Virus genome (UHGV): UHGV-1356966
Reading direction: 5' to 3' (one strand)
Origin: a virus
Length of the DNA: 36,988 nt
Shown: positions 1-36,988 of the stretch, one piece after another
How positions within the stretch are numbered: position 1 is the stretch's first letter
Layout of the letters: each line of letters opens with the position of its first letter
Notes under the pieces: model-generated
Database searches by the model: none
What the model was told of the DNA's origin: nothing
Seen by the model: only the letters and a program-made list of their open reading frames with translations
Position numbers and translations under genes: made by a program

Positions 1-552
1 CCCACCCTTATCAATAAAAGTAGACTTAATACCTTTTTGAGCCCATCCTTGAATCGTTCTTTCTAGTGTTTCATCGAATGTAAAAAGACCGCTGTTAAAT
101 GCAGCAGTCGTTTTGTTAATTATTTCTGTGTACATTTGAGTGGTAGCTGTTCCGTAGCCAAAATTGGTAGATAGTAACGTTTGATTCACATAATTGTTTA
201 TGTCAGACCATACTTGATCATGATAAGCTTTCATGACATTGTCTAGGTTCGATGGCAAAGGCTTAGGATCGTAAGGTAGTTGTTTGTCTAAGTCTCTGAT
301 TATCTTTTCTCCTGAGCTATCAAACATACTTTCAATTTCAGATTCAGCAATTCCTGTTATTTGAGAAATCACTTTTGCAGTTTCTTTATTAAATAGATGC
401 AACTGTTGCAGTTTTTCTCTTTGCCAATCTAAAATATTATCGTGCCCACTATTCAATCGTTTGATGATAATACGTATTAATTCGCCTTCTAACGATTGAT
501 ATAGATGAGCCATATTAGAAGACCATAAGTCTAACTGATGTGGAGAAATCAT
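1..552 (-). CDS. Phage head morphogenesis / minor head protein (SPP1 gp7 / Mu F-like), N-terminal part. The ORF runs off the left window edge.
   Basis: ATG at 552..550 overlaps the portal stop as TAATG. The frame is open to base 1 and ends ...GIKSTFIDKGG. It continues in frame with 36988..36377 if the window ends are joined. Confidence 0.6.
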   Translation of the reverse strand, partial: MISPHQLDLWSSNMAHLYQSLEGELIRIIIKRLNSGHDNILDWQREKLQQLHLFNKETAKVISQITGIAESEIESMFDSSGEKIIRDLDKQLPYDPKPLPSNLDNVMKAYHDQVWSDINNYVNQTLLSTNFGYGTATTQMYTEIINKTTAAFNSGLFTFDETLERTIQGWAQKGIKSTFIDKGG

Positions 553-2051
553 TATTCTTCACTTCCTAAATGTTCCTCAATTATGTTTTGCTCATGCTCT
601 GAGTAATCTATATCAAGAGTTTCAGCCCTAATCTCATATACTATCCTTTTTGCTTCTTTTTCTGTAACTCCAGTAAGTTTTTGAATAGCAGTTAACTTAG
701 ATGTTAAGCCAGCTGTTACTAGTTTAGAGTAATAATCAGCCTTGGCATCTTGCGATTGGAAAACACCATCATCAAAGTCGATATTTATTCCTAATTCTTT
801 GACAGGATTAAATAACTTGTATGCCGCAGCAAGTTCAAAAATCGTAGTGATCAATTCTTTCAACGCTTCTTCTACAATAAGAACATTATCTGACCGAGTA
901 GAAAAAGTTTCAGAGTTTTCACTAATTATCTCTGTCGCTGTTTTAACAGACTGGCCATCAAAACTAAATGTTCCGCTAGAAAAACCTGTCTGGAGCTCAA
1001 TAATTCGTAAAATAAAATTGATACTTGCTATAAATTCAGTTGATCGCAATGATGGAGCGAATTCATCAATAAAAATTTCATCAGATTTAAGCTGTTGAAA
1101 AACAGAGGTTTTACTGTCAAACCGCTTTACTGGTTTTCCATTACTGTCATACTTAACTCTAAAAAAGTGATCAGATGCTAAAATTTTTCTTCTAGCTTCT
1201 TCTATTTCCCACATAAACTCATCGTATTTTTCATTGATATCTGCCAATTGTCGCTTAGCATTATCAATCACGCCCAAACTTAGCGGGCTATCTAAATTAA
1301 TATTATTTTTACCCGCTAGCTTTATATACACAAAAAGAGGACGACTAAAACCATCTAATATCGTCTCCTCCTGCAGATTTTTGTACTTTTCTAAAGAGTT
1401 GAGAGGGATCCTCACACCAACTTGCTTTTGTTCTTCAGATCGATACAATTCGTTTCTTATGCGGTACTTCCCGTCAACCCATTCATGAAATTCTAGCAAA
1501 GTATAATAGATTGTCTTTTGTCCCTCGGCTTGCTGAGTTACAGTAGCGATGGCTGCTTCTGAAATATCATTGGTATTGGATTGTAGAGGGAAAAATGTAT
1601 CAGCTCGACAAAACGAAATTTTGATTTTACCTGAATTAGTATCCACGTAAGGCCTCAAAGCTAAGCCGCCAATGGCATAACCAGCCTCTAGCTCTTCTCC
1701 GAAGTTTTTCCTGAATTTATTGTCAGCAAATACCGACTGCAAAAATTCATCAGCTTTTTCATCATCCAAACTGATGTTGCATCCATCGTTGAATACTAGC
1801 TTAGATAACTTTCTGGACACTACTTTGGATACGTTCAACGAGTGAAAAGGGCGCGTCTGCCTATAACCATCACTATTGATGTATTCTATGTCCCCATAAA
1901 CATTTCTATAAATTTCTTTATTGTTCCTTATTCGACTTAATTCGCTATCACTCATAGCAATCTTTGGATGATCTGTGATACTATTCAACGTTTCAACCAT
2001 TCCTATTTTTGCACCTCCAATCCTAAACAAAGCTTTTAATTTATCGAACAT
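552..2051 (-). CDS. Portal protein
   Basis: 499-aa ORF immediately downstream of terL. Size and position match a siphovirus portal. Confidence 0.8.
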   Translation of the reverse strand: MFDKLKALFRIGGAKIGMVETLNSITDHPKIAMSDSELSRIRNNKEIYRNVYGDIEYINSDGYRQTRPFHSLNVSKVVSRKLSKLVFNDGCNISLDDEKADEFLQSVFADNKFRKNFGEELEAGYAIGGLALRPYVDTNSGKIKISFCRADTFFPLQSNTNDISEAAIATVTQQAEGQKTIYYTLLEFHEWVDGKYRIRNELYRSEEQKQVGVRIPLNSLEKYKNLQEETILDGFSRPLFVYIKLAGKNNINLDSPLSLGVIDNAKRQLADINEKYDEFMWEIEEARRKILASDHFFRVKYDSNGKPVKRFDSKTSVFQQLKSDEIFIDEFAPSLRSTEFIASINFILRIIELQTGFSSGTFSFDGQSVKTATEIISENSETFSTRSDNVLIVEEALKELITTIFELAAAYKLFNPVKELGINIDFDDGVFQSQDAKADYYSKLVTAGLTSKLTAIQKLTGVTEKEAKRIVYEIRAETLDIDYSEHEQNIIEEHLGSEE

Positions 2052-2066
2052 TCGTCCACCTCTTTT

Positions 2067-3383
2067 CTAGGCAATGTAAGTTTTGTAGAAATAATTGTTT
2101 CCATATCTCGCTTCATCGAGAGCATGATTATATTTATCAATCGGTAATCCATTGTCATTTCTTACGTACATAGATATTTCTTTTTCAAAATTGTAGTGAT
2201 CATATTCTTCTCCGTTTTGCAAGATAATGAATTGCCCACTAGTCATCGTGTTTTGGAGACGTTCAATGCCGACTTCGATTTTCAATCCATTACTCGAAAC
2301 TTTGTCAGAACTATTATTGTCAGCTTTATCAGTCTCAATACCAATTAAATCCAGTTCTGTTCTTAGTGTTTTACATGCTGGATCAACAAAGAACCAGTTC
2401 CATCGAGGGAGATGTTTCCATTTTGTATAGCACCACTCGACAAACTTTTTGATTTCTTTAGCGTATGTAGACATCGCCTTGGTTTCTCCAGTGTCGGTCC
2501 CGCTATGATAGTAGTTAGCTAAACGATACAAATAAAACTTTCCTTCGTGATGAGTAACCACCCAAAAAGCACAAGTTGTAGCATCAGCTTGCCCACCATC
2601 TGTAGTAAAGAATGTTTCAATTATATTCCCCTTTATCTCGGTAGCTTTGTTGTTCTTGCCAAACATCGAATAAATTACACCTTGTGGCAGAACTCTATGA
2701 CCATGCCAGTCTCGTTCTAACAGGTATTCACTACTTGACAATTCATCATACAACTGTTGTTTTCGTTCCTCGGTTAAAATTGGATTGTCGTTCGGTGTCC
2801 AATGACGAAATAAAAAACGTCCTGACTTCTCAAAACGTTCAAGCAATTCAAGATTAGGATGGTTTGGCGCTGGCGGGTTTTGTTCACCCAGATGGTAACG
2901 CCATTCAGCAGCGAATGTCCGTCTAAAGCATTCATTGATAAAGTCTTTGTGCAATAGATTAAATTCGAGAAATGTCACAGAGCCTAAAGACATACCCGTG
3001 ATAGCCCCAACAGAGTTTATCTTCCCTCCGCCTTTATAATAAATTTTCTTTTCACCGTTTGGAGCATATAACAACAGATGATCGCCATGTTCATCGTGTC
3101 GTATATCGGAACAACCATCAAATATATGGACCAAGCCTAATCCATCTCCATCCATAAACATTCGATAAGCTTGTTCTTGGTTATAAGCAGTTACAAGATG
3201 GTTTTGATCAGGAGATCTTAAATAAAAATCAGCCATTTTAAAAATATCGGAAGTTGTCTTCCCACTCCGAGGTGTTCCTTCATTTAATTCAAAAGTAATC
3301 CCTTGAACCACTTGATTAATATTACTAATCTGCTTCGGGCTAAACTTCAGCTTCATTACTTCCATCACCTCCAGACTTAACAT
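2067..3383 (-). CDS. terL: Terminase large subunit
   Basis: Walker A motif GTPRSGKTT near the N-terminus. Length and position after terS fit terL. The true start may be an internal Met (about 3365 or 3356), because the ORF overlaps terS. Confidence 0.85.
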   Translation of the reverse strand: MLSLEVMEVMKLKFSPKQISNINQVVQGITFELNEGTPRSGKTTSDIFKMADFYLRSPDQNHLVTAYNQEQAYRMFMDGDGLGLVHIFDGCSDIRHDEHGDHLLLYAPNGEKKIYYKGGGKINSVGAITGMSLGSVTFLEFNLLHKDFINECFRRTFAAEWRYHLGEQNPPAPNHPNLELLERFEKSGRFLFRHWTPNDNPILTEERKQQLYDELSSSEYLLERDWHGHRVLPQGVIYSMFGKNNKATEIKGNIIETFFTTDGGQADATTCAFWVVTHHEGKFYLYRLANYYHSGTDTGETKAMSTYAKEIKKFVEWCYTKWKHLPRWNWFFVDPACKTLRTELDLIGIETDKADNNSSDKVSSNGLKIEVGIERLQNTMTSGQFIILQNGEEYDHYNFEKEISMYVRNDNGLPIDKYNHALDEARYGNNYFYKTYIA

Positions 3384-4074
3384 CTAAGAGAGCTTGAAGT
3401 AGATCATTGACTTTCCCACCAGCAGTTAGCTTATCGGCATTGTTCTTAGCAATATCCGCCTCTGCTTTTGCTTTAATTATTTGGGATTCCATTAATTCTA
3501 GTTTCTTTCTACGTTCATCATGTTCATCAGCTATTGAGACAAATTGTCTAATCAAGCTAGCCAATGTTCCCATTGCTCGAGACTGTGCATTCATAAAGTT
3601 CGCTTGTTTGTCCCAAGCATACTGCAAGCCATATCTTTCGCTACTGCTGTTTTTTCCTGAAGACCATCCGACTTCTTCTTTTGATAAATCATCTGAACCA
3701 GAAACATACATGATTTTCTGTGCTCTGATAATAGCCGTGTACTGGATCATGATATTATTCCATAAGATATCCTCAGGTTTAGAGGTTGCAACCTCATTCA
3801 TGATTTCTAACGTTTCAGAGGGTAACCAATTAGCAAAAAGACCATGTGTAACAGCATTTTTGTTATTATCTGGTGCTCCCTTGTTATTAGGTGTGGTTGC
3901 GTCCTTGGTTGCAACCTTTTCTTGAGACCAGTAACGGGATTTCCATGACTTTACTGTGCTGATGGATACACCATATTTTTCAGCTATTTCTCTATACTTC
4001 AATCCTTTTTCATAATCATCTTTAGCTAGTTCGTATTTCTTCACATGTGACACCACCTCGCTTGTTTGCAACAT
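3340..4074 (-). CDS. terS: Terminase small subunit (N-terminal HTH)
   Basis: HTH-like KYREIAEKYGVSISTVKSWKSRY at the N-terminus. Sits directly upstream of terL. Confidence 0.7.
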   Translation of the reverse strand: MLQTSEVVSHVKKYELAKDDYEKGLKYREIAEKYGVSISTVKSWKSRYWSQEKVATKDATTPNNKGAPDNNKNAVTHGLFANWLPSETLEIMNEVATSKPEDILWNNIMIQYTAIIRAQKIMYVSGSDDLSKEEVGWSSGKNSSSERYGLQYAWDKQANFMNAQSRAMGTLASLIRQFVSIADEHDERRKKLELMESQIIKAKAEADIAKNNADKLTAGGKVNDLLQALLDVKSGGDGSNEAEV

Positions 4075-18642: not shown

Positions 18643-19809
18643 TTGTATCAGAGAAAGAGAGCTGATTCAATCGTGGCACGGTTTGTAAAACGTGGTAATA
18701 GTTGGCAATATGAAATTTCATATAAAGATGAAAATGGGAAATATAAAAAATTAAGAAAAAGCGGATTTTATAAAAAGAAAGATGCTATTGCAGAAGCCGC
18801 TGACATAGAATTAAAACTGGCTAAAGGTTTAAAAGTCACAAACTCAGATATTAGCTTGTACGATCATTTTAAACAATGGATCGATGTGTACAAAAAAGGA
18901 AAAGTCACTAATATAACTTTTCGTAAATACGAAAATACATTAATGAATATAAAAAAATATTTTCCACATGATACGCTTAAAACACTTACCAGAACAAAAT
19001 ATCAACAACGGTTAAATACATTTGCAGAAACACACGCTGACGCATCAGTAGAACGATTGAATATACATATTAGGGCAAGTCTAATTAATGCTATTGATGA
19101 AGGAGTCATTCCGTATGACTTCACTAAAAAAGCGGTAATAAAGGGGAAATCTCCTGGAGTTAAAGAACAAGATAAGTTCTTAAATTATGAAGAGTTTCAG
19201 AAATTAATGGGTTTGGCAAAAGAAAAACTAGACCCTCGTTTCGCTTCACGGTTCATGATTCTTGTAGCAGGAGCAACTGGCATGAGGTTTGCTGAATTAT
19301 TAGGTCTCACCTGGAATCATGTGGATTTAAATAAAGGGATAATTTCAATTGATAGAGCCTGGGATTATCAAGATAAAAACGATTTTTGTCCTACTAAAAA
19401 TATTCAATCAATTAGAAAAGTTCCTTTAGATTCAGAAATGGTTTCTATAGTTTCGAGATTTAAGCAAAAACAATCAGAACTCTTTGAAAAATTAGATATA
19501 GTCCCTAAACATGATTTTGTGTTTTATAATGCAAAAGAAGGTCTAATTTCCAACAACGCAGTAAACAAGAAATTGAAAGAGTTGCTTAAACAGTTATCGA
19601 TTGAAACGCCTCTCACAATTCACGGTTTAAGACACACTCATGCATCAATTTTGATTTTTAAGGGAATTAATATTATGGCAGTTTCAAAACATCTAGGACA
19701 TAAAAATTTGGCAGTGACGATGGAAACATATAGTCATGCTGTAAAGGAACTTGAGGAAAGAGAGGAAGAAAAAATAAAGCAAGTTTTTCATGATTTGATG
19801 AAAGTATAA
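18643..19809 (+). CDS. int: Tyrosine integrase (phage integrase family)
   Basis: Conserved R (TGMRFAEL), HGLRHTH box and catalytic Y (ETYSH). The start is TTG at 18643 or GTG at 18670. Confidence 0.85.
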   Translation: MYQRKRADSIVARFVKRGNSWQYEISYKDENGKYKKLRKSGFYKKKDAIAEAADIELKLAKGLKVTNSDISLYDHFKQWIDVYKKGKVTNITFRKYENTLMNIKKYFPHDTLKTLTRTKYQQRLNTFAETHADASVERLNIHIRASLINAIDEGVIPYDFTKKAVIKGKSPGVKEQDKFLNYEEFQKLMGLAKEKLDPRFASRFMILVAGATGMRFAELLGLTWNHVDLNKGIISIDRAWDYQDKNDFCPTKNIQSIRKVPLDSEMVSIVSRFKQKQSELFEKLDIVPKHDFVFYNAKEGLISNNAVNKKLKELLKQLSIETPLTIHGLRHTHASILIFKGINIMAVSKHLGHKNLAVTMETYSHAVKELEEREEEKIKQVFHDLMKV

Positions 19810-20106: not shown

Positions 20107-20180
20107 TGTACCCTGTAGGACTCGAACCTACGACCGGACGGTTATGAGCCGTCTGCTCTAACCAACTGAGCTAAGGGTAC
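20107..20180 (-). tRNA. tRNA with CAT anticodon (tRNA-Met, or lysidine-modified tRNA-Ile2), 74 nt, no encoded CCA
   Basis: The 7-bp acceptor stem GTACCCT/AGGGTAC, D-arm, anticodon loop CTCATAA and T-arm GTAGG-TTCGAGT-CCTAC all fold by eye. It resembles ileX-type tRNAs. The 3' end faces int. Confidence 0.8.
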
Positions 20181-31100: not shown

Positions 31101-31222
31101 ATGGAAAATCCAGCTTTATCACTACTACCTTCTAATTGATTAAGTTGCTTATTTAAACCTGTCACATCTTTACCATTAACGTCTACATCAATTACAACCT
31201 GTCCATCAGCCATCGTCTTCAC
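28190..31222 (-). CDS. Tail tape measure protein
   Basis: 1010 aa, Ala/Gly/Ile-rich and helical, with internal 22-aa tandem repeats. Sits downstream of the chaperone pair. Confidence 0.85.
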   Translation of the reverse strand: MKTMADGQVVIDVDVNGKDVTGLNKQLNQLEGSSDKAGFSIKNLVVSMGLVKVASAAISTSVNAIKGAFSNAISEGAKLEQSIGGVETLFKENAGIVKNYANQAFKTAGVSANEYMENVTSFSASLISSLGGDTKKAAELANTAMIDMSDNANKMGTDMEAVTQTYQSLARGNYAMLDNLKLGYGGTKSEMERLMKDAEKLTGEHYTIGDFADTVKAIHAVQENLGITGTTAKEAATTISGSFASMKAAMQNVLGKMAIGEDIKDELNELATTTSTFLFGNFIPMVGNILKALPEAIVTFIKAAIPHVKAAFGELLSSISSNFPILGQLFDFISKNAQAFKLFASVIVGAIAGFMAFKGAISIFNSVKVAITGVKAAFTAMKVALLANPFGLILAAVGALTAGLIYLYKTNDNVRNSINNLIGKAKEMLNNFIKSESVSKLFADGLKLISSIGDKVASIIGNIGKNATNSASSIDWFGIAFKTIKAVILALLGPIGLAIKAFELIAKTLGGGDIGKGIDTIMDSFSGLADGIKTYGPQLGSNFGTALEGILTAIGAALPGIISGGLQVVAGFISGLAQGFPQLAVAAAQLITSFTAAVVLLIPTIVLAATSIITSFLGAITVALPQIIAAGAGLINALLQGITQQLPTLVGNMALLITTWLISLNAYMPMIMQAGFNLLITFLQGIANNIGQVTQKALDIVINFAQVIAQNMPTIVNTAVNLMVNFVNSLASRMPDIVKSAVNLIVNFVNGIASNLQAIINAAVNLIVAFLRGIASRINTIVNAAMDLVDAMVRGIIQAQGRLMDAAITLINGFANNIRSRQEEVRGAALNLLDAIIGVFVPDSLYSTGKNIIQGLINGIGSMVGAVTAKISEVAGNIKDKITGALGIHSPSRWMRDYVGKFIPQGIAVGIEADAKSAYSAMNKLSNGLMNSITPESALGTSRMGMASVGSRIVNNTYNNQKQLDVEKLAQVIAKHPVRVSSYLDGTLVGDNMDQRFGKVLNRRSYMRGE
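28822..29155. repeat. Imperfect tandem repeats (about 66 nt / 22 aa, roughly 5 copies) inside the tape measure gene
   Basis: The protein repeats NFVNSLASRMPDIVKSAVNLIV / NFVNGIASNLQAIINAAVNLIV and so on. Coordinates are approximate. Confidence 0.5.
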
Positions 31223-31787
31223 CTACCTCCGAATCAGGCAATGCATATTTTTGTTGTAGCTTTCTCATGCGTTCTTTTTCTTTAGCTGATTCTCCTTTGC
31301 TTGGTTCCCATGTCCTAATCTGCATGATTCGAGCAAGAATGGTGTCATCTGGCAAACTCTCAAGCAGCGCTTGGAATTCCTCCCACATCATCCGTCCTTG
31401 CTCTTCAAATAGATTGATGCCAATTTGTCTGAATGATGCATAGATGTATTTAGCATCATGAACTAGGCTGATGGTTCTTTTTTCCTTAACTGCATTTGGC
31501 ATAGGATTGCCTAAACGGTCAGTTTCAATACCCTCACTACCGCCAACAGAAATATAATTTTCTAAAATATAGTTGAATAATAAAAACTGTTGTTCAGACG
31601 AGCCTTGAAATATTTTTTCAAAGTCACTGATCAACAGTTCTAAACACATATTCACTTTTTCTTCTGGAAACAAATCACTATCTTCCAAAATATCAAAAAC
31701 ATCTAGTACATTATCAAATGTTAAATCGATAGGTAATTCTGTGCCATCAAACTCTATCGAAGTGACTAACGGGTCATTTAACCGCAT
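31206..31787 (-). CDS. Tail assembly chaperone (second of a pair), own RBS
   Basis: The position between the major tail protein and the tape measure protein is conserved. It has an AGGTGAT RBS, and the frame is closed immediately upstream. Confidence 0.5.
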   Translation of the reverse strand: MRLNDPLVTSIEFDGTELPIDLTFDNVLDVFDILEDSDLFPEEKVNMCLELLISDFEKIFQGSSEQQFLLFNYILENYISVGGSEGIETDRLGNPMPNAVKEKRTISLVHDAKYIYASFRQIGINLFEEQGRMMWEEFQALLESLPDDTILARIMQIRTWEPSKGESAKEKERMRKLQQKYALPDSEVGEDDG

Positions 31788-31795
31788 TTAATCAC

Positions 31796-32245
31796 CTACT
31801 TCTTTTTCTTATTTTTCAATGCTTTCTTTTTCAATAAATCAGCTTTCTTCTTAGAAAGAGTATCTTTACGTTTCAAGGCTTCTTTTTCAATTGCTTCCGC
31901 AACTTCAAAAGAAATTGGATCAAATAATTCTATTAATTGTTCTGCATCAGGATAAATAGAATAAATTTTTTCAAATGATCCTTCACCAAGCAACGAATCA
32001 TATTCCACCTTAGCTAAATCTTTCGTTAGAGAAATAATCTTAATAGCGTCTTCTTTTTCAGGCTGCTCGATATTCTCGATTTGTTTAAGTTGCTGTTTAA
32101 GCTCCCTTACCTGTTCCTCAAATTCAGCCTGAACATCAAAAAAACGTGTCAGTTCTTCTGGAGTAGTACCGAAAAAGAACTCTACTTCTCCAATATTGAT
32201 AGGAAAACCTTTTTTCTCTATTTGAAATGATAATTTGTTAGTCAT
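31796..32245 (-). CDS. Tail assembly chaperone (first of a pair), Lys-rich C-terminus
   Basis: Position downstream of the major tail protein. Ends KKKALKNKKKK. Confidence 0.5.
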   Translation of the reverse strand: MTNKLSFQIEKKGFPINIGEVEFFFGTTPEELTRFFDVQAEFEEQVRELKQQLKQIENIEQPEKEDAIKIISLTKDLAKVEYDSLLGEGSFEKIYSIYPDAEQLIELFDPISFEVAEAIEKEALKRKDTLSKKKADLLKKKALKNKKKK

Positions 32246-32285: not shown

Positions 32286-32634
32286 TTATTTTTTGATTAA
32301 TACTACTGATCTGGACCAAGCAGAACCTATGAATGGACCATCGTGTAAATATCGCGCTTTTTCGATTTCATCTTTTCCTTTTCCTTTTCCTAAAACGTTA
32401 TACGCTTGAACATACAGATAAATTTTATTTCCTGGCTCTAATGTCGGAACATCTTCAGCCGCTAACGTCCATGAGGTTTTTTCCGAATATCCCATCATTG
32501 TTGCATCATGAGGATCAGATTGATTAGCATTGCTATAGTGTATAACATAGGCCTGTGCTTTTGGTACGGCATCCCAAGAAAGAGAAATCGATCCATCATT
32601 CAAAACCCCAGTTACGTTCTGGGGTGCATTAGGG
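32286..32634 (-). CDS. +1 frame extension of the major tail protein encoding an FN3-like domain (product of a programmed +1 frameshift at CCC_UAA)
   Basis: The +1 frame is open across the major tail protein stop and reads …VAP-NAPQNVTGVLNDGSISLSWDAVP… The hairpin ACCCCAG-ttacgtt-CTGGGGT (32604..32625) begins 4 nt after the stop. Confidence 0.55.
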
Positions 32635-33087
32635 TGCAACAGGGACGTCTTTTGCTTCTGGTGTGCTATCAAATGCGATACCGCATGAAAAATCACCGTA
32701 TGCAGTAGCATCGCCGACCTGAGCAACTGGCTCTGTTACTGTTGCTTTACCAATACGTTGTTTTTTACCAGATGCAGATACTACTTTGAACCACACTTTC
32801 CGAGCATCTCCTGATTTTCCAATCATGGCCTCAATAGCCGCCATCGCAGCATCATCTTCATCGTATAAACCTGTAAATGAATAACCTAACTGATGAGAAG
32901 TAACGTCTGTCTCCCCTTCGCCGTTCCCATCATAGTAGCCAGTAGTTTCAGATTCTTCGTTCGAATTATCATCAACATTGGAAATCCACTTTGCTAACTC
33001 CAACCAGCCGTCTTCGCTTGGTGTATCAGCATTAGTAGTTGTAATTAATTGAATAAAATAGCTTTGTAAGGCATTTTTGCGTCTCAT
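32629..33087 (-). CDS. Major tail protein
   Basis: 152 aa, upstream of the chaperones. Ends …DVPVAP followed by UAA. Confidence 0.7.
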   Translation of the reverse strand: MRRKNALQSYFIQLITTTNADTPSEDGWLELAKWISNVDDNSNEESETTGYYDGNGEGETDVTSHQLGYSFTGLYDEDDAAMAAIEAMIGKSGDARKVWFKVVSASGKKQRIGKATVTEPVAQVGDATAYGDFSCGIAFDSTPEAKDVPVAP

Positions 33088-33814: not shown

Positions 33815-34152
33815 ATCACCTCTAATTCGTATGAATAGATAGCATCTGAATACGCTTCTGTAATTGTATCGATCTTAGTAATGACATGTTCTTTACCATC
33901 ATAAATAACTAATGATTGTTCTTTGAAATTCGGTAAAGGAGTAGTTAAAGTGTTATAACAAAAAATTACTGCATTATAGAGCAACTGCTTGCCGCTTGGC
34001 GAAAAGGAATACTGACTTCCTCGGTCAATCCGACAATTTTCTATAGTTACATAATCTCCATAAACAGGTTTGTTATAGTCCCCTTCTCCTAAATATTCTC
34101 GATAAATAAAAGAATCTACCAAAAATTCTTTTGGTGGTTTTGGCATTACCAT
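33811..34152 (-). CDS. Head-closure / head-tail adaptor protein
   Basis: 113 aa with an ATGA overlap. Confidence 0.4.
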   Translation of the reverse strand: MVMPKPPKEFLVDSFIYREYLGEGDYNKPVYGDYVTIENCRIDRGSQYSFSPSGKQLLYNAVIFCYNTLTTPLPNFKEQSLVIYDGKEHVITKIDTITEAYSDAIYSYELEVI

Positions 34153-34538
34153 GACGGAACACCTCGATATAAAAGTCCTGTACCTTCAAGATAGATGTAT
34201 ACATCTTCAGCTACTAAAGACTTCTTCCTGCCGTCTTCTGATGATTTATTAGAGATACTCGTTCTACCAGCCGAGAAGCTTTGTGGAGTTTTATTAATAC
34301 TTTCATAAGTATCCGCTCCAACTTCATCAAAGTAGATTATTTGAGAGCACAGAGCTAATTTGAATTGTTTTACACGAAAACCAATTGGGTCTTCTTCAAT
34401 TTTATTAAATTGATAAAAATAGTTAGTAATGCTATCTAGAACAGCAGATGCTTTTAATAAATGCTTTTCGAAAATAGCTTTAAAATCATCTGTCTTCCCA
34501 GTAAGATTTTTGAATTCTTCAAATTCAATATAAGGCAT
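34146..34538 (-). CDS. Head-tail connector (gp6-like)
   Basis: 130 aa, first gene after the capsid terminator. Has an AAGGAGGGA RBS. Confidence 0.45.
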   Translation of the reverse strand: MPYIEFEEFKNLTGKTDDFKAIFEKHLLKASAVLDSITNYFYQFNKIEEDPIGFRVKQFKLALCSQIIYFDEVGADTYESINKTPQSFSAGRTSISNKSSEDGRKKSLVAEDVYIYLEGTGLLYRGVPSW

Positions 34539-34555
34539 ATAATATCCCTCCTTAT

Positions 34556-34581
34556 AAAAAAAAGAGGGAGCTATGCCCCTC
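34556..34581 (-). terminator. Intrinsic terminator after the capsid unit
   Basis: Minus-strand hairpin GAGGGG-cata-GCTCCCTC followed by UUUUUUUU. Confidence 0.5.
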
Positions 34582-34846
34582 CTCCTTCTATTACAGTAAC
34601 TTCACAAGTTGCTGTTTTACCATTTACTGTTGTTGCAGTAATCGTTGCTGTTCCTTTGGCAACACCTGCCGCTTTACCTTGTTTTAGCGTCACACTTGCG
34701 ATAGATGCATCACTAGAACTAAAAGTTACTGTTTTATCTGTAGCTTCTTCTGGTAAAACCGTAGCCACCAATGTTTCTGTAGCCCCTACTTCAAGCGTTA
34801 GAGTTGTTTTATTTAACGTAACACTTGAAGGGGCTACGCTTTTGGG
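34571..34846 (-). CDS. -1 frame extension of the major capsid protein encoding a Big_2 Ig-like domain (product of a programmed -1 frameshift at C_CCA_AAA)
   Basis: The -1 frame is open from 34870 down to 34571. It reads …[55 protein letters not shown]…, a full Big_2 domain. The heptamer lies at minus 34846..34840. A 14-bp interrupted stem follows 2 nt downstream. Confidence 0.55.
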
Positions 34847-35694
34847 ACGTAAGAAACATAGATAGCTTTTTTAGCGTTGTCGAATACGATAGCATCATAG
34901 TAATCTAAACCTTTAATCGTATCTCGATAGCCGCTTCGATCTTGTGATGCTGGCACTGTGTCGACTGTACCAAACTTAACAATAGGCGCCACTGCAGTTA
35001 GTGGAACGATAATGAAGTTAAGTGTGTCTTCAATAGTTATTCCAGAAAAACGATCTTTCGCTACTTTTAGAATAGGGACACCCCCATCAATCTGAGCTAC
35101 TGTTCTATCAATTCCATTAATAGACATTTGGTTTGTCGTGAATGTTTTGCTAACACCTTTGGCATTTTTTAATAAACGATAAGTAGCTGCTGATACAAAC
35201 ATTACGTAGCCACCAGGAACTTCATTGTCAGTCATATATTCTTCAGCGGCATCATATGCAGCTAGAATATTGTCTTCGGTTAAAGTTTCGTTCACTTTTT
35301 TACCGGCATTGTCATACATTACTTGAACAGCAACTTTATCTCTATGTGGAACAGTGATTAAACGTTTGTGTTCAGTTACAATATTGTTAATAGTTAGTGC
35401 AGCACTTTCAGATTGATCGAGTTGATCTACGTCATACCCAAACCAATCTTCGTGAGTTAATCTAATTGTTTCTTTTTCAATACTAATTTGATTACGAGCG
35501 TTTTCTCCGTTCCGTTGATATTGTGTCGCATCAACGAATCCTGACATTTTGTTGATACGTACTTCGTTTGCGCCAACAAAGTCAGCTGCAGTGATACTTT
35601 TTGCACCTTGAATTAAGACATCCCACACTTGAGAGTCAGCTCTAAATTCTTTGTCAATGGTTGCTAAATCTTTTGAGTCTAATACTAAAGCCAT
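34834..35694 (-). CDS. Major capsid protein
   Basis: 286 aa, directly after the scaffold gene and followed by a strong terminator. Confidence 0.8.
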
Positions 35695-35696
35695 AT

Positions 35697-36266
35697 TTAT
35701 TCACCTAATCTTTCTTGAATTTTTTGTACAATACTTTTTCCGCCTACTGTACTACCCGCAGGATTTCCAGAGGGAACAATCGTTGGTGTCGGCGGAGTTG
35801 GTTCAGGGTCTTTTGCTTCTTGAAATAAGAATGATTTACTTTCTTGAAGTCCTTTTAATTGTTCTTCAAAACCTTGTAATTTACCGTCGACAACTTTAAT
35901 AGTGTCTTTGTCTAGTTGACCAAGCACAATTTCTTCATCAAGCGCATTTGCTTCTTTTAAAGCTAACTTGATAGCAAAATCTTTCTGCTGCTCTGCAAGT
36001 TTTGTTTCAGAATCAGATTTGGCAGCATCAAATTTACTTTGTAAATCTGCAAGTTGTTGAGTCAGTCCCTCGTTACCTTTTGCAGCTTCTTTAAGTGCGT
36101 CTAATTCAGTCTGGTTAGAGTCAAGCTGTTCTTTGAACTGATCACGCTCTTGTTCTGCAGTGGCTACTTGAGCATTTAACTGCGTAACAGTTTTCCCATG
36201 TAAAGCCATAACTGATTTAGCAATTTCTTCGTCAATTCCTAAAGCGATAAGATCTTCTTTTTTCAT
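35697..36266 (-). CDS. Scaffold protein
   Basis: Helical and Glu/Lys/Gln-rich, with a Pro/Thr-rich C-terminus. Sits immediately upstream of the capsid gene. Confidence 0.7.
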
Positions 36267-36376: not shown

Positions 36377-36988
36377 TTAAAAATCGTCATAGTGAAAATC
36401 TTTCAATAAGGTATTAATAGGTGTGTATACCTTCTCTCTTGCATAATTTCTATTCAAATACTCATTAGAATCAACTAGAGTACGCAATCGACTTTGTGCG
36501 GCTCTAATTTTCTTCGCCCACTCTTTTGCATTTTCGTCTTGTCCGAGAGCTTCTGAGACCATTCTATTCTTTTTATATTTCACAACCTGACGTTCTAGGT
36601 AGCGTTGCTTCTTAGTTAATTCTGCAACCTTTTTATTTTCTTTTTCGTTGAATTTAGGTTGATTATTTGTATTGACACCAGGAATAAATGGGATATGCAG
36701 ATGTTGACAATTTACACCTCGGTGCCCGCCTGCAGTTTCATATTCTGCTTGCCAATACGGGTCGTAGATACTTCTATATTTCCAATTGGGAGGCAATTCA
36801 GATACGGGCCGTAAATCAACCACATGACCTTGAATCTTTGAACATGCTTGCCTTGCTCCCATATGGCTTGTGACTAGCACTGTGTGGACACTATACTCGC
36901 TCATGCGGTCTTTTCTTAATGCGTCATAGGTATTTGACAGGGTAGACTTTAAAACTGTTCTAACATACCGCTCTAAGCTCCATGTATG
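36377..36988 (-). CDS. C-terminal part of the same SPP1 gp7 / Mu F-like head morphogenesis protein. The frame is open to the right window edge.
   Basis: From 36988 the minus frame reads HTWSLERYVRTVLKSTLSNTYDALRKDRMSEYSVHTVLVTSHMGARQACSKIQGHVVDL… with no stop. The Mu-F core motif is present. The Met listed in the ORF track (36904) is internal. Confidence 0.6.
   Translation of the reverse strand, partial: HTWSLERYVRTVLKSTLSNTYDALRKDRMSEYSVHTVLVTSHMGARQACSKIQGHVVDLRPVSELPPNWKYRSIYDPYWQAEYETAGGHRGVNCQHLHIPFIPGVNTNNQPKFNEKENKKVAELTKKQRYLERQVVKYKKNRMVSEALGQDENAKEWAKKIRAAQSRLRTLVDSNEYLNRNYAREKVYTPINTLLKDFHYDDF

Follow-up and report, generated by a model that had tools for sequence, protein, structure and literature searches.

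Does an immunoglobulin-like (Ig-like) domain that is encoded out of frame behind a phage capsid gene reach the virion as an extension of the capsid protein? The question is raised by UHGV virus genome UHGV-1356966, a stretch of 36,988 nucleotides (nt) that we call the window, where the major capsid protein gene (34834..35694, minus strand) is followed in the −1 frame by the coding sequence of a Big_2 (bacterial Ig-like, group 2) domain. A preliminary description of this DNA had proposed that a programmed −1 ribosomal frameshift fuses this domain to the capsid protein. Every computational test that was able to refute the fusion favoured it, and the proposal is supported by conservation of the slip site and of the downstream stem, by the ratio of nonsynonymous to synonymous substitution (dN/dS) in the extension, by natural in-frame fusions and by a close match to phage A2 of Lactobacillus casei. 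On this evidence we consider the end of the capsid gene to be very probably a −1 programmed frameshift site (probability of roughly 0.9), and production of the long isoform in the window phage can be strongly inferred.

The probable slip site, its hairpin and the −1 extension

The capsid open reading frame (ORF) ends GTC CCA AAA GCG TAG. Re-reading the sequence bore out this ending as it was first given, together with the zero-frame heptamer C_CCA_AAA, of the form X_XXY_YYZ, at 34846..34840 on the minus strand, one codon before the stop. The spacer codon GCG and the zero-frame stop TAG (34834..34839, minus) become part of AGC GUA GCC (S V A) in the −1 frame. This frame is open across the capsid stop from 34870 to a TAG at 34573..34571, in agreement with the interval first proposed (34571–34870), and comprises 11 codons upstream and 88 codons downstream of the zero-frame stop. 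After a slip, the −1 reading CCC AAA AGC GUA and onward (34571..34846, minus) would add 89 residues after Lys285. The long isoform is computed at 374 amino acids (aa) and 40.3 kDa and the short one at 286 aa and 31.6 kDa; the difference of 8.6 kDa replaces the gain of 9–10 kDa estimated before. The heptamer by itself is not significant, as CCCAAAA occurs four times in the window against 5.5 expected, and its significance comes from frame, position and conservation, not from its bare occurrence.

We propose the following mechanism. Most ribosomes would read ...GUC CCA AAA GCG UAG through to release of the 286-aa protein. Some would stall while the P site holds tRNA-Pro on CCA and the A site tRNA-Lys on AAA, the stall being caused by a G+C-rich hairpin about 5 nt downstream that resists unwinding. 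Both transfer RNAs would then move back one base, to CCC and AAA, and translation would continue in the −1 frame as AGC GUA GCC CCU..., past the zero-frame UAG and through the 89 residues that make up one Big_2 domain, to terminate at a UAG within a terminator-like hairpin. The outcome would be a minor 374-aa subunit with a C-terminal Ig-like domain, co-assembled with the 286-aa form. Slippage in the window phage and its efficiency are what we infer here, as are an outward-facing domain and its binding to carbohydrates on cells or mucus.

The conservation of the site was followed in 124 loci encoding homologues of the capsid protein (handles beginning with L), gathered from annotated phages, one genome per species, and IMG/VR, which together with the window give 87 distinct 3′ contexts. 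The capsid gene ends NNC CCA AAA NNN stop in 57 of the 87, the stop lying exactly one codon after the heptamer, and in one more context the heptamer directly abuts the stop. Capsid proteins with this cassette are 55–99% identical, and its carriers include Enterococcus, Lacticaseibacillus, Limosilactobacillus and Listeria genomes as well as uncultured viral contigs. The codon ahead of CCA varies among nine (GTC, GCC, TCC, GAC, ATC, CTC, AGC, AAC or ACC) that specify eight amino acids; its third base is always C, although C makes up 22% of third positions in gene bodies. Likewise, AAG (35% of Lys codons) and Pro codons other than CCA (53%) are never seen within the heptamer. The invariance of C, CCA and AAA despite such codon frequencies argues for selection on the nucleotides rather than on the protein. 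The spacer codon is GCG in 46 of the 57 contexts, and the stop (TAG in 44, TAA in 11, TGA in 2) always follows the heptamer by 3 nt. No relative with Big_2 in the −1 frame lacks the heptamer.

The extension is recognizable as a protein domain. The preliminary description had called it a complete Big_2 domain and named a Pfam search as the check; that search returned PF02368 at 34598..34825 (minus) with E 1.2e-16, the match covering profile positions 4–79 of 79 and scoring 60.8 bits against a cut-off of 22.8. The extension also matches PHROG 215, 'structural protein with Ig domain' (E 7.9e-29), and is related by sequence to the solved Big_2 domains 7quz (E 3.8e-11) and 7z47. It is to this homology that we owe the probable Ig fold of the extension. 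Compared with 24 relatives, its dN/dS is 0.10–0.40 (median 0.22), with dS reaching values above 1; this low median indicates that the extension is kept as coding sequence despite having no start codon. In Tetragenococcus-associated contigs (L020, L090 and L092, gene 2501..3616), a capsid protein of 371 aa, 84% identical to that of the window, carries Big_2 fused in frame; in these the heptamer is absent and a terminator follows. Such a natural fusion argues that Big_2 belongs on the C-terminus of this capsid protein.

Behind the constant cassette, what is appended varies. Among the −1 extensions, Big_2 accounts for 39 distinct contexts, a HeH/LEM-like domain for 12 and peptides of 20–26 aa for 6. 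The HeH/LEM-like extension (SAP/Rho_N-like, 51–65 aa) matches PF12949 with E values from 6e-12 to 3e-4, and lies behind the CCCAAAA cassette just downstream of the capsid gene (2501..~3360) in loci L032–L039, L042, L043, L097, L112 and L115. Helix-extension-helix domains are usually described as DNA-binding. Proteins like gpFI have been proposed to become attached to head proteins via frameshifting, according to a passage of PMC4493119, and the HeH/LEM extension may be related to them. Other arrangements occur in the same family: in L028, L007 and L036 the stop is preceded by G GGA AAC or G GGA AAA and followed by a −1 extension, and in L007, a Listeria phage, the annotation makes a separate ORF of the HeH/LEM domain after G GGA AAC TAA. 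A capsid extension is absent from Lactobacillus phages LL-H and mv4, which have a separate ORF instead.

The hairpin first described behind the heptamer is real. The 91-nt segment 34760..34850 (minus) folds at −33 kcal/mol, against −18.1 ± 2.8 for shuffled sequences (z −5.3; none of 200 shuffles as stable), and a 65-nt version at −28.1 kcal/mol (z −6.8). The predicted stimulatory hairpin spans 34779..34837 (minus) and has a G+C core of GCCCC (34829..34833) with GGGGC (34783..34787), lengthened in the window by UUCAAGUGUUA/UAACGCUUGAA and by 3 base pairs (bp) at the base. The basal GUA/UAC pairs, 2 nt after the heptamer, are confined to the window and very close relatives, and an A-U pair at alignment columns 18/72 is found in 3 of 28 sequences. 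The start of the stem at 2 nt downstream, as originally drawn, has to give way to a conserved stem that begins 5–7 nt after the heptamer, and the 28-nt loop drawn with it can pair further, leaving an apical loop of 9 nt.

Across the family, pairing is kept while the stem sequence varies by lineage. We folded the 65 nt after the heptamer in 56 distinct contexts, with 30 homologues lacking the heptamer for comparison. The 5′ arm begins 5–7 nt after the heptamer in nearly all 56 contexts, and the mean fold energy is −21.8 kcal/mol with the heptamer against −14.8 without. The family holds 24 complementary helix types, among them GCCCC/GGGGC, CCCAUC/GGUGGG, CCCCCA/UGGGGG, CGCCGAC/GUCGGCG, ACCGUC/GACGGU, UGCCGUC/GACGGCA and CCCCGC/GCGGGG. 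When 28 Big_2-class sequences are aligned without gaps, the window structure pairs 76.5% of cells, against 33–47% when the 3′ partners are slid by 1–3 columns as a register control; changes on both sides affect 7 pairs in the window structure and 1–4 in the slid registers. The covariation support for the stem is real but moderate.

The extension is followed by what had been described as a strong terminator. A consensus scan and folding do place a terminator-like hairpin with a run of eight T at 34554..34591 (minus), with the stop codon of the extension in its loop; its strength is another matter, since the short G+C stem lengthened by A/U pairing reaches −19.9 kcal/mol with z −2.5, which makes it plausible and not outstanding. 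The Shine-Dalgarno site of the next gene, encoding the head-tail adaptor, comes after this hairpin, and the L020 in-frame fusion is followed by a comparable hairpin with a T-run.

Other readings of the locus

The Big_2 sequence could be a separate small gene that yields a free Ig-like decoration protein from its own start, either the 66-aa ORF beginning with TTG (34571..34771), which gene callers list, or a non-canonical one. Own-start small ORFs do stand right after the capsid gene in L002, L005 and L023 (MAKFKV...), and a Latilactobacillus phage has a 73-aa ORF with its own ATG in that position. In the window, no ATG, GTG or TTG lies in the −1 frame from the upstream −1 stop to where the domain begins. 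The earliest candidate start is the TTG at 34771, which falls about 24 residues into the Big_2 domain, so that its product would miss the first strands, and it is missing in most relatives, which have TTA ACA or TTA TCA instead. An own start would also leave unexplained the invariant heptamer, the forced C ahead of it, the fixed 3-nt distance to the stop and the in-frame fusions. We regard a free decoration protein as very unlikely.

Another route of recoding at the capsid end has a slightly smaller chance still. Stop readthrough, +1 slippage and transcriptional slippage on the A run come into question, and +1 slippage has parallels close by: the major tail gene of the window phage appears to use it at CCC_UAA, and capsid homologues L015, L075 and L113 end ACA CCC TAA with an extension in the +1 frame, which in these three is a HeH domain. 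For the window capsid gene, however, Big_2 lies in the −1 frame, readthrough of the UAG would add only 6 zero-frame codons, and the +1 frame at the capsid end closes after 8 codons. Appreciable polymerase slippage takes A runs far longer than the four present here, which makes the transcriptional variant unlikely as well.

A decayed in-frame fusion, in which an indel of 1 nt or an assembly error split a capsid–Big_2 gene and left Big_2 silent, has in-frame capsid–Big_2 versions to point to in the L020 group and is nonetheless the least credible reading, because the out-of-frame arrangement occurs in 39 distinct Big_2-bearing sequences from independent isolates, metagenome-assembled genomes and viromes of several genera, because the purifying selection on the −1 frame described above is the opposite of the dN/dS near 1 expected for it, and because a silent remnant would gather stops and lose the heptamer.

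The −1 frameshift fusion has some results to its debit. The case for the long isoform, in the window phage and across the capsid family, is made at the level of sequence. A database search found 848 homologues of the capsid protein, and the best 120 of these are all short forms (278–293 aa, nearly all 286 aa), named 'capsid protein' or unnamed, with slippage noted for none; the frameshift extension is unannotated in databases. RNAalifold found no consensus structure in the 28 Big_2-class sequences, probably owing to a shift of the helix register by 1 nt between subgroups. A test with anchored helices separated heptamer from non-heptamer contexts only moderately (62% against 40% at p ≤ 0.05); the controls are imperfect, because a terminator hairpin occupies the equivalent position in many non-heptamer contexts and makes the contrast less sharp. 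No Rfam family matches the shift element. Structure prediction with AlphaFold2 was uninformative both for the extension alone from a single sequence (strands only; predicted local distance difference test score, pLDDT, of 50.5) and for the capsid protein from 17 close homologues (pLDDT 30).

Known systems and the cassette as a module boundary

Listeria phage PSA had been offered as the precedent for the window site. PSA shifts +1, and the closest known system is instead Lactobacillus (Lacticaseibacillus) casei phage A2, which shifts −1 on the same heptamer. Both the major head and the major tail gene of A2 are reported, in passages of PMC5009743 and PMC7260188, to undergo −1 frameshifting that adds Ig-like extensions. 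The head frameshift (gp5A/gp5B) is credited to Garcia et al. 2004 (J Bacteriol 186:1714), a paper that by its title regards the long form as essential, in passages of PMC5009743, PMC5221750 and PMC7260188, the tail frameshift to Rodriguez et al. 2005 (J Bacteriol 187:8201) in passages of PMC5221750 and PMC7260188, and a passage of PMC6950654 names CCCAAAA as the slippery heptamer of the A2 group.

The A2 head gene ends ACC CCA AAA GCG TAA, with the heptamer, the GCG spacer and the stop distance of the window, and the two sites are identical over 12 nt (13 if TAA and TAG are equated). The A2 tail gene ends GCC CCA AAA GCG TAG, the same 13-nt motif, followed by an Ig-like −1 extension. The motif CCCAAAAGCGTAR, in which one codon separates heptamer and stop, is thus common to the window, the A2 head gene and the A2 tail gene; the window and the A2 tail gene read CCCAAAAGCGTAG and the A2 head gene CCCAAAAGCGTAA. 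The −1 products of the A2 head gene and of the window both start PKSV(A/T)P and continue into Big_2, their extensions being 44% identical over 91 aa (E 1e-12); both sites, moreover, have a hairpin downstream and would extend the major head protein C-terminally.

The capsid proteins themselves are unrelated (BLASTP E 0.26). That of the window matches PHROG 422, whereas A2-like capsids recovered in the motif scan described below match PHROG 10; the A2 protein has 400 aa, lies beside a prohead protease and has an annotated mature peptide, whereas that of the window, at 286 aa, has a scaffolding protein as its partner. In A2 the stem begins 9 nt downstream of the heptamer, and the folded segment is much weaker than that of the window (−18.1 kcal/mol, z +0.75). 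The A2 tail extension sits on the tail tube protein and not on a capsid protein, and in the window's own tail gene, unlike that of A2, an FN3 domain follows a +1-type site, CCC TAA. A shared cassette and Big_2 domain on unrelated capsids lead us to regard the window element as a homologue of the A2 cassette and Ig domain placed on another capsid gene; as judged from the alignments, it corresponds to an A2-type cassette in everything except a homologous upstream gene. As the frameshift mechanism has reportedly been demonstrated by experiment in A2, the window site would be a well-supported new example and not a new kind.

Other systems are more distant. Recoding in the capsid genes of Listeria phages PSA (+1) and A118/A500 (−1) goes back to Zimmer 2003 and Dorscht 2009, as given in passages of PMC5009743. 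These phages share with the window phage a second, C-terminally extended capsid protein (predicted for the window), recoding near the 3′ end of the gene and the condition of temperate Firmicute siphophages. Unlike the window site, that of PSA is a +1 shift on a CCC codon with a pseudoknot, and the PSA-like ACA CCC TAA with a +1 extension is what L015, L075 and L113 have; a PSA-type +1 site is rejected for the window capsid gene, whose extension is in the −1 frame. Phages T7, T3 and K1F make the minor capsid protein 10B besides 10A by −1 frameshifting, the extension being Ig-like in T3 and not in T7 (PMC5009743, PMC13370021). Common to these phages and the window are a −1 shift close to where the major capsid gene ends and a sub-stoichiometric longer subunit, both predicted for the window; T7, T3 and K1F are podoviruses whose capsid gene and shift cassette are unrelated to those of the window. 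Their extended capsid forms are minor proteins used for surface display, and the K1F site has been used for displaying foreign Ig-like adhesins (PMC13370021).

In lambda gpV and T5 pb6, Big_2 is fused in frame (PMC8718954). These fusions and that of L020 place the same type of domain at the C-terminus of a major virion protein, as in the window, but involve no recoding and put the domain on every subunit. Ig-like domains on tail tubes project outwards and have been proposed to bind surface carbohydrates weakly (PMC8718954). Ig-like additions to phage structural proteins by programmed frameshift were described by Fraser et al. 2006, as related in passages of PMC5009743, PMC5221750 and PMC13370021. 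A single further instance would not surprise a specialist; the modularity across the family and a homology breakpoint exactly at the heptamer are of more interest.

We scanned IMG/VR for the exact 17-mer CCCAAAAGCGTAGCCCC, a choice that fixes the 5′ stem arm by construction. Fewer than 10 loci are expected by chance, an estimate that assumes about 6e10 bases and uniform base composition, and 86 are listed, 51 in the capsid family of the window and 35 in others. Apart from two very short ORFs and two cut at contig ends, the 35 non-family loci all have the 17-mer in frame at the end of a long ORF that ends ...PKA*, and a hairpin follows it in each of them (L126–L209, for example L126:2141, L148, L130, L167, L149 and L131). 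The unrelated families that end in this way include major head proteins of PHROG 544 and, in several lineages, some of them A2-like, of PHROG 10; major tail proteins of PHROG 820, the tail family of the window; an A2-like tail protein; and a tail assembly chaperone (PHROG 6959). The 17-mer also ends the genes of several very large proteins of unknown function, which reach 1827 aa upstream of the site and 772 aa in the −1 frame.

Where the homology between genomes breaks is equally telling. Three sister phages from Enterococcus (L126, L144 and L207) match the window at 82–98% nucleotide identity in the flanks, and their capsid genes are unrelated to its own. The first base of the heptamer, 34846, is precisely where homology sets in, and it continues for 1.8–3.8 kb downstream; on the upstream side it resumes at about 35750–35800, inside the scaffolding gene and some 18–34 codons before its stop. 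In the more distant phages L148 and L168, homology to the window likewise starts at 34846. These phages carry a PHROG 544 capsid gene and not one of PHROG 422. Translation of the L126 scaffold shows that its first ~172 residues are nearly identical to those of the window, whereas the C-terminal tail (about 17 residues in the window) is different, and the Big_2 cassette is nearly the same as that of the window. In L126, the capsid gene and the scaffold tail, presumed to be the capsid-binding part, were thus exchanged as one unit. A homology that starts exactly at the heptamer makes the frameshift site a module boundary in phage mosaicism.

From the 17-mer in frame in at least five unrelated families, the constant cassette before changing extensions and the heptamer breakpoint in five tested loci with other capsid families (three of them close sisters), we tentatively propose, at somewhat less than even odds, that CCCAAAAGCGUAG with its G+C hairpin did not arise locally in a single gene but is a self-contained, portable recoding cassette, serving as a recombination junction and travelling with, or being a docking point for, swappable C-terminal modules, which may comprise Big_2, FN3-like and HeH/LEM-like domains and the peptides of 20–26 aa. 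If true, upstream capsid or tail genes or downstream domains could be swapped with sub-stoichiometric expression kept. A contrary view is relayed in PMC5009743, according to which Ig domains land randomly and frameshifting is selected afterwards.

The evolutionary pattern, then, combines a constant slip site, swappable extensions, alternatives by +1 shift or in-frame fusion, and capsid genes exchanged at the heptamer, which makes the family a clear, testable case of a recoding signal as a module boundary. In annotation, the Ig-like part is missed or called a truncated small ORF, and virion proteomes and host-interaction predictions for prophages of Enterococcus, Listeria and lactobacilli are hence incomplete. 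Ig-like domains of phage heads have been proposed to bind carbohydrates on bacterial surfaces or in mucus (PMC8718954, PMC13370021), so that sub-stoichiometric display of Big_2 on prophages of E. faecium, a gut commensal that is also a hospital pathogen, would bear on the retention of phages in the gut. The cassette could also be regarded as a natural low-copy display site, like the 10B site of T7 and K1F.

Capsid gene, tail genes and genome setting

The 286-aa ORF is, by family membership, assigned as a major capsid protein of the LL-H gp34/PHROG 422 family. It matches PHROG 422, 'major head protein', over residues 1–285 (E 2.3e-74), is 60–62% identical to g34, the annotated major capsid protein of phages LL-H and mv4, and stands after the scaffolding gene. 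Pfam gave no match for the protein, the assignment coming from PHROGs, and a PDB sequence search with the capsid profile found no relative. Among the best 120 of the 848 homologues, the nearest is an Enterococcus faecium 'capsid protein' (99%). The best explanation for the origin of the window is a temperate siphophage with E. faecium as its host. The capsid region is 90.5% identical to that of Enterococcus phage 4995_2 (OP745420), which is unannotated.

A late operon on the minus strand surrounds the capsid gene. It includes the C-terminal part of a MuF-like minor head gene (36377..36904), the scaffolding gene (35697..36266; PF06810, E 1.6e-41) and, on the other side of the capsid gene, the head-tail adaptor gene (34146..34538; PHROG 541). 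The ~260 nt between capsid gene and adaptor hold no full-length zero-frame gene.

The major tail protein gene of the window (32629..33087, minus; PHROG 820, E 5e-53) ends GCA CCC TAA T. Its +1 frame is open for about 113 codons (region 32286..33087, minus) and holds the coding sequence of an FN3 domain (PF00041, E 5e-6, a match that passes the cut-off), and a hairpin, ACCCCAG-AACGTAA-CTGGGGT, starts 4 nt after the stop. This looks like a +1 shift at CCC_stop, of the type of PSA/A118/A500 or of SPP1 gp17.1*. Many relatives have the same arrangement, with compensatory changes in the hairpin, but 13 close relatives have CAC as the last codon and 2 have TCC, which makes this shift site less secure. 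Two further minus-strand ORFs, 31796..32245 (149 aa) and 31206..31787 (193 aa, PF06854 Phage_Gp15), lie between the tail tube and tape measure genes, in the usual position of tail chaperones, and the frame of the second is −1 to that of the first. They cannot form a canonical G/GT −1 fusion, as that frame is closed by a TAA (31790..31788) just upstream of the second ORF's ATG.

With 36.5% G+C, the window of 36,988 bp looks like a complete, circularly permuted temperate genome that was cut inside the minor head gene, which runs past the window end at 36988. Putative terminase and portal genes at 552..4074 and a putative integrase gene mid-window were assigned by ORF size and position alone. Between this putative integrase gene (18643..19809, plus strand) and the lysis region sits a full-length tRNA-Met (CAT) gene (20107..20180, minus; 71 bits with Rfam), which may belong to or adjoin the attachment site or may be a tRNA carried by the phage.

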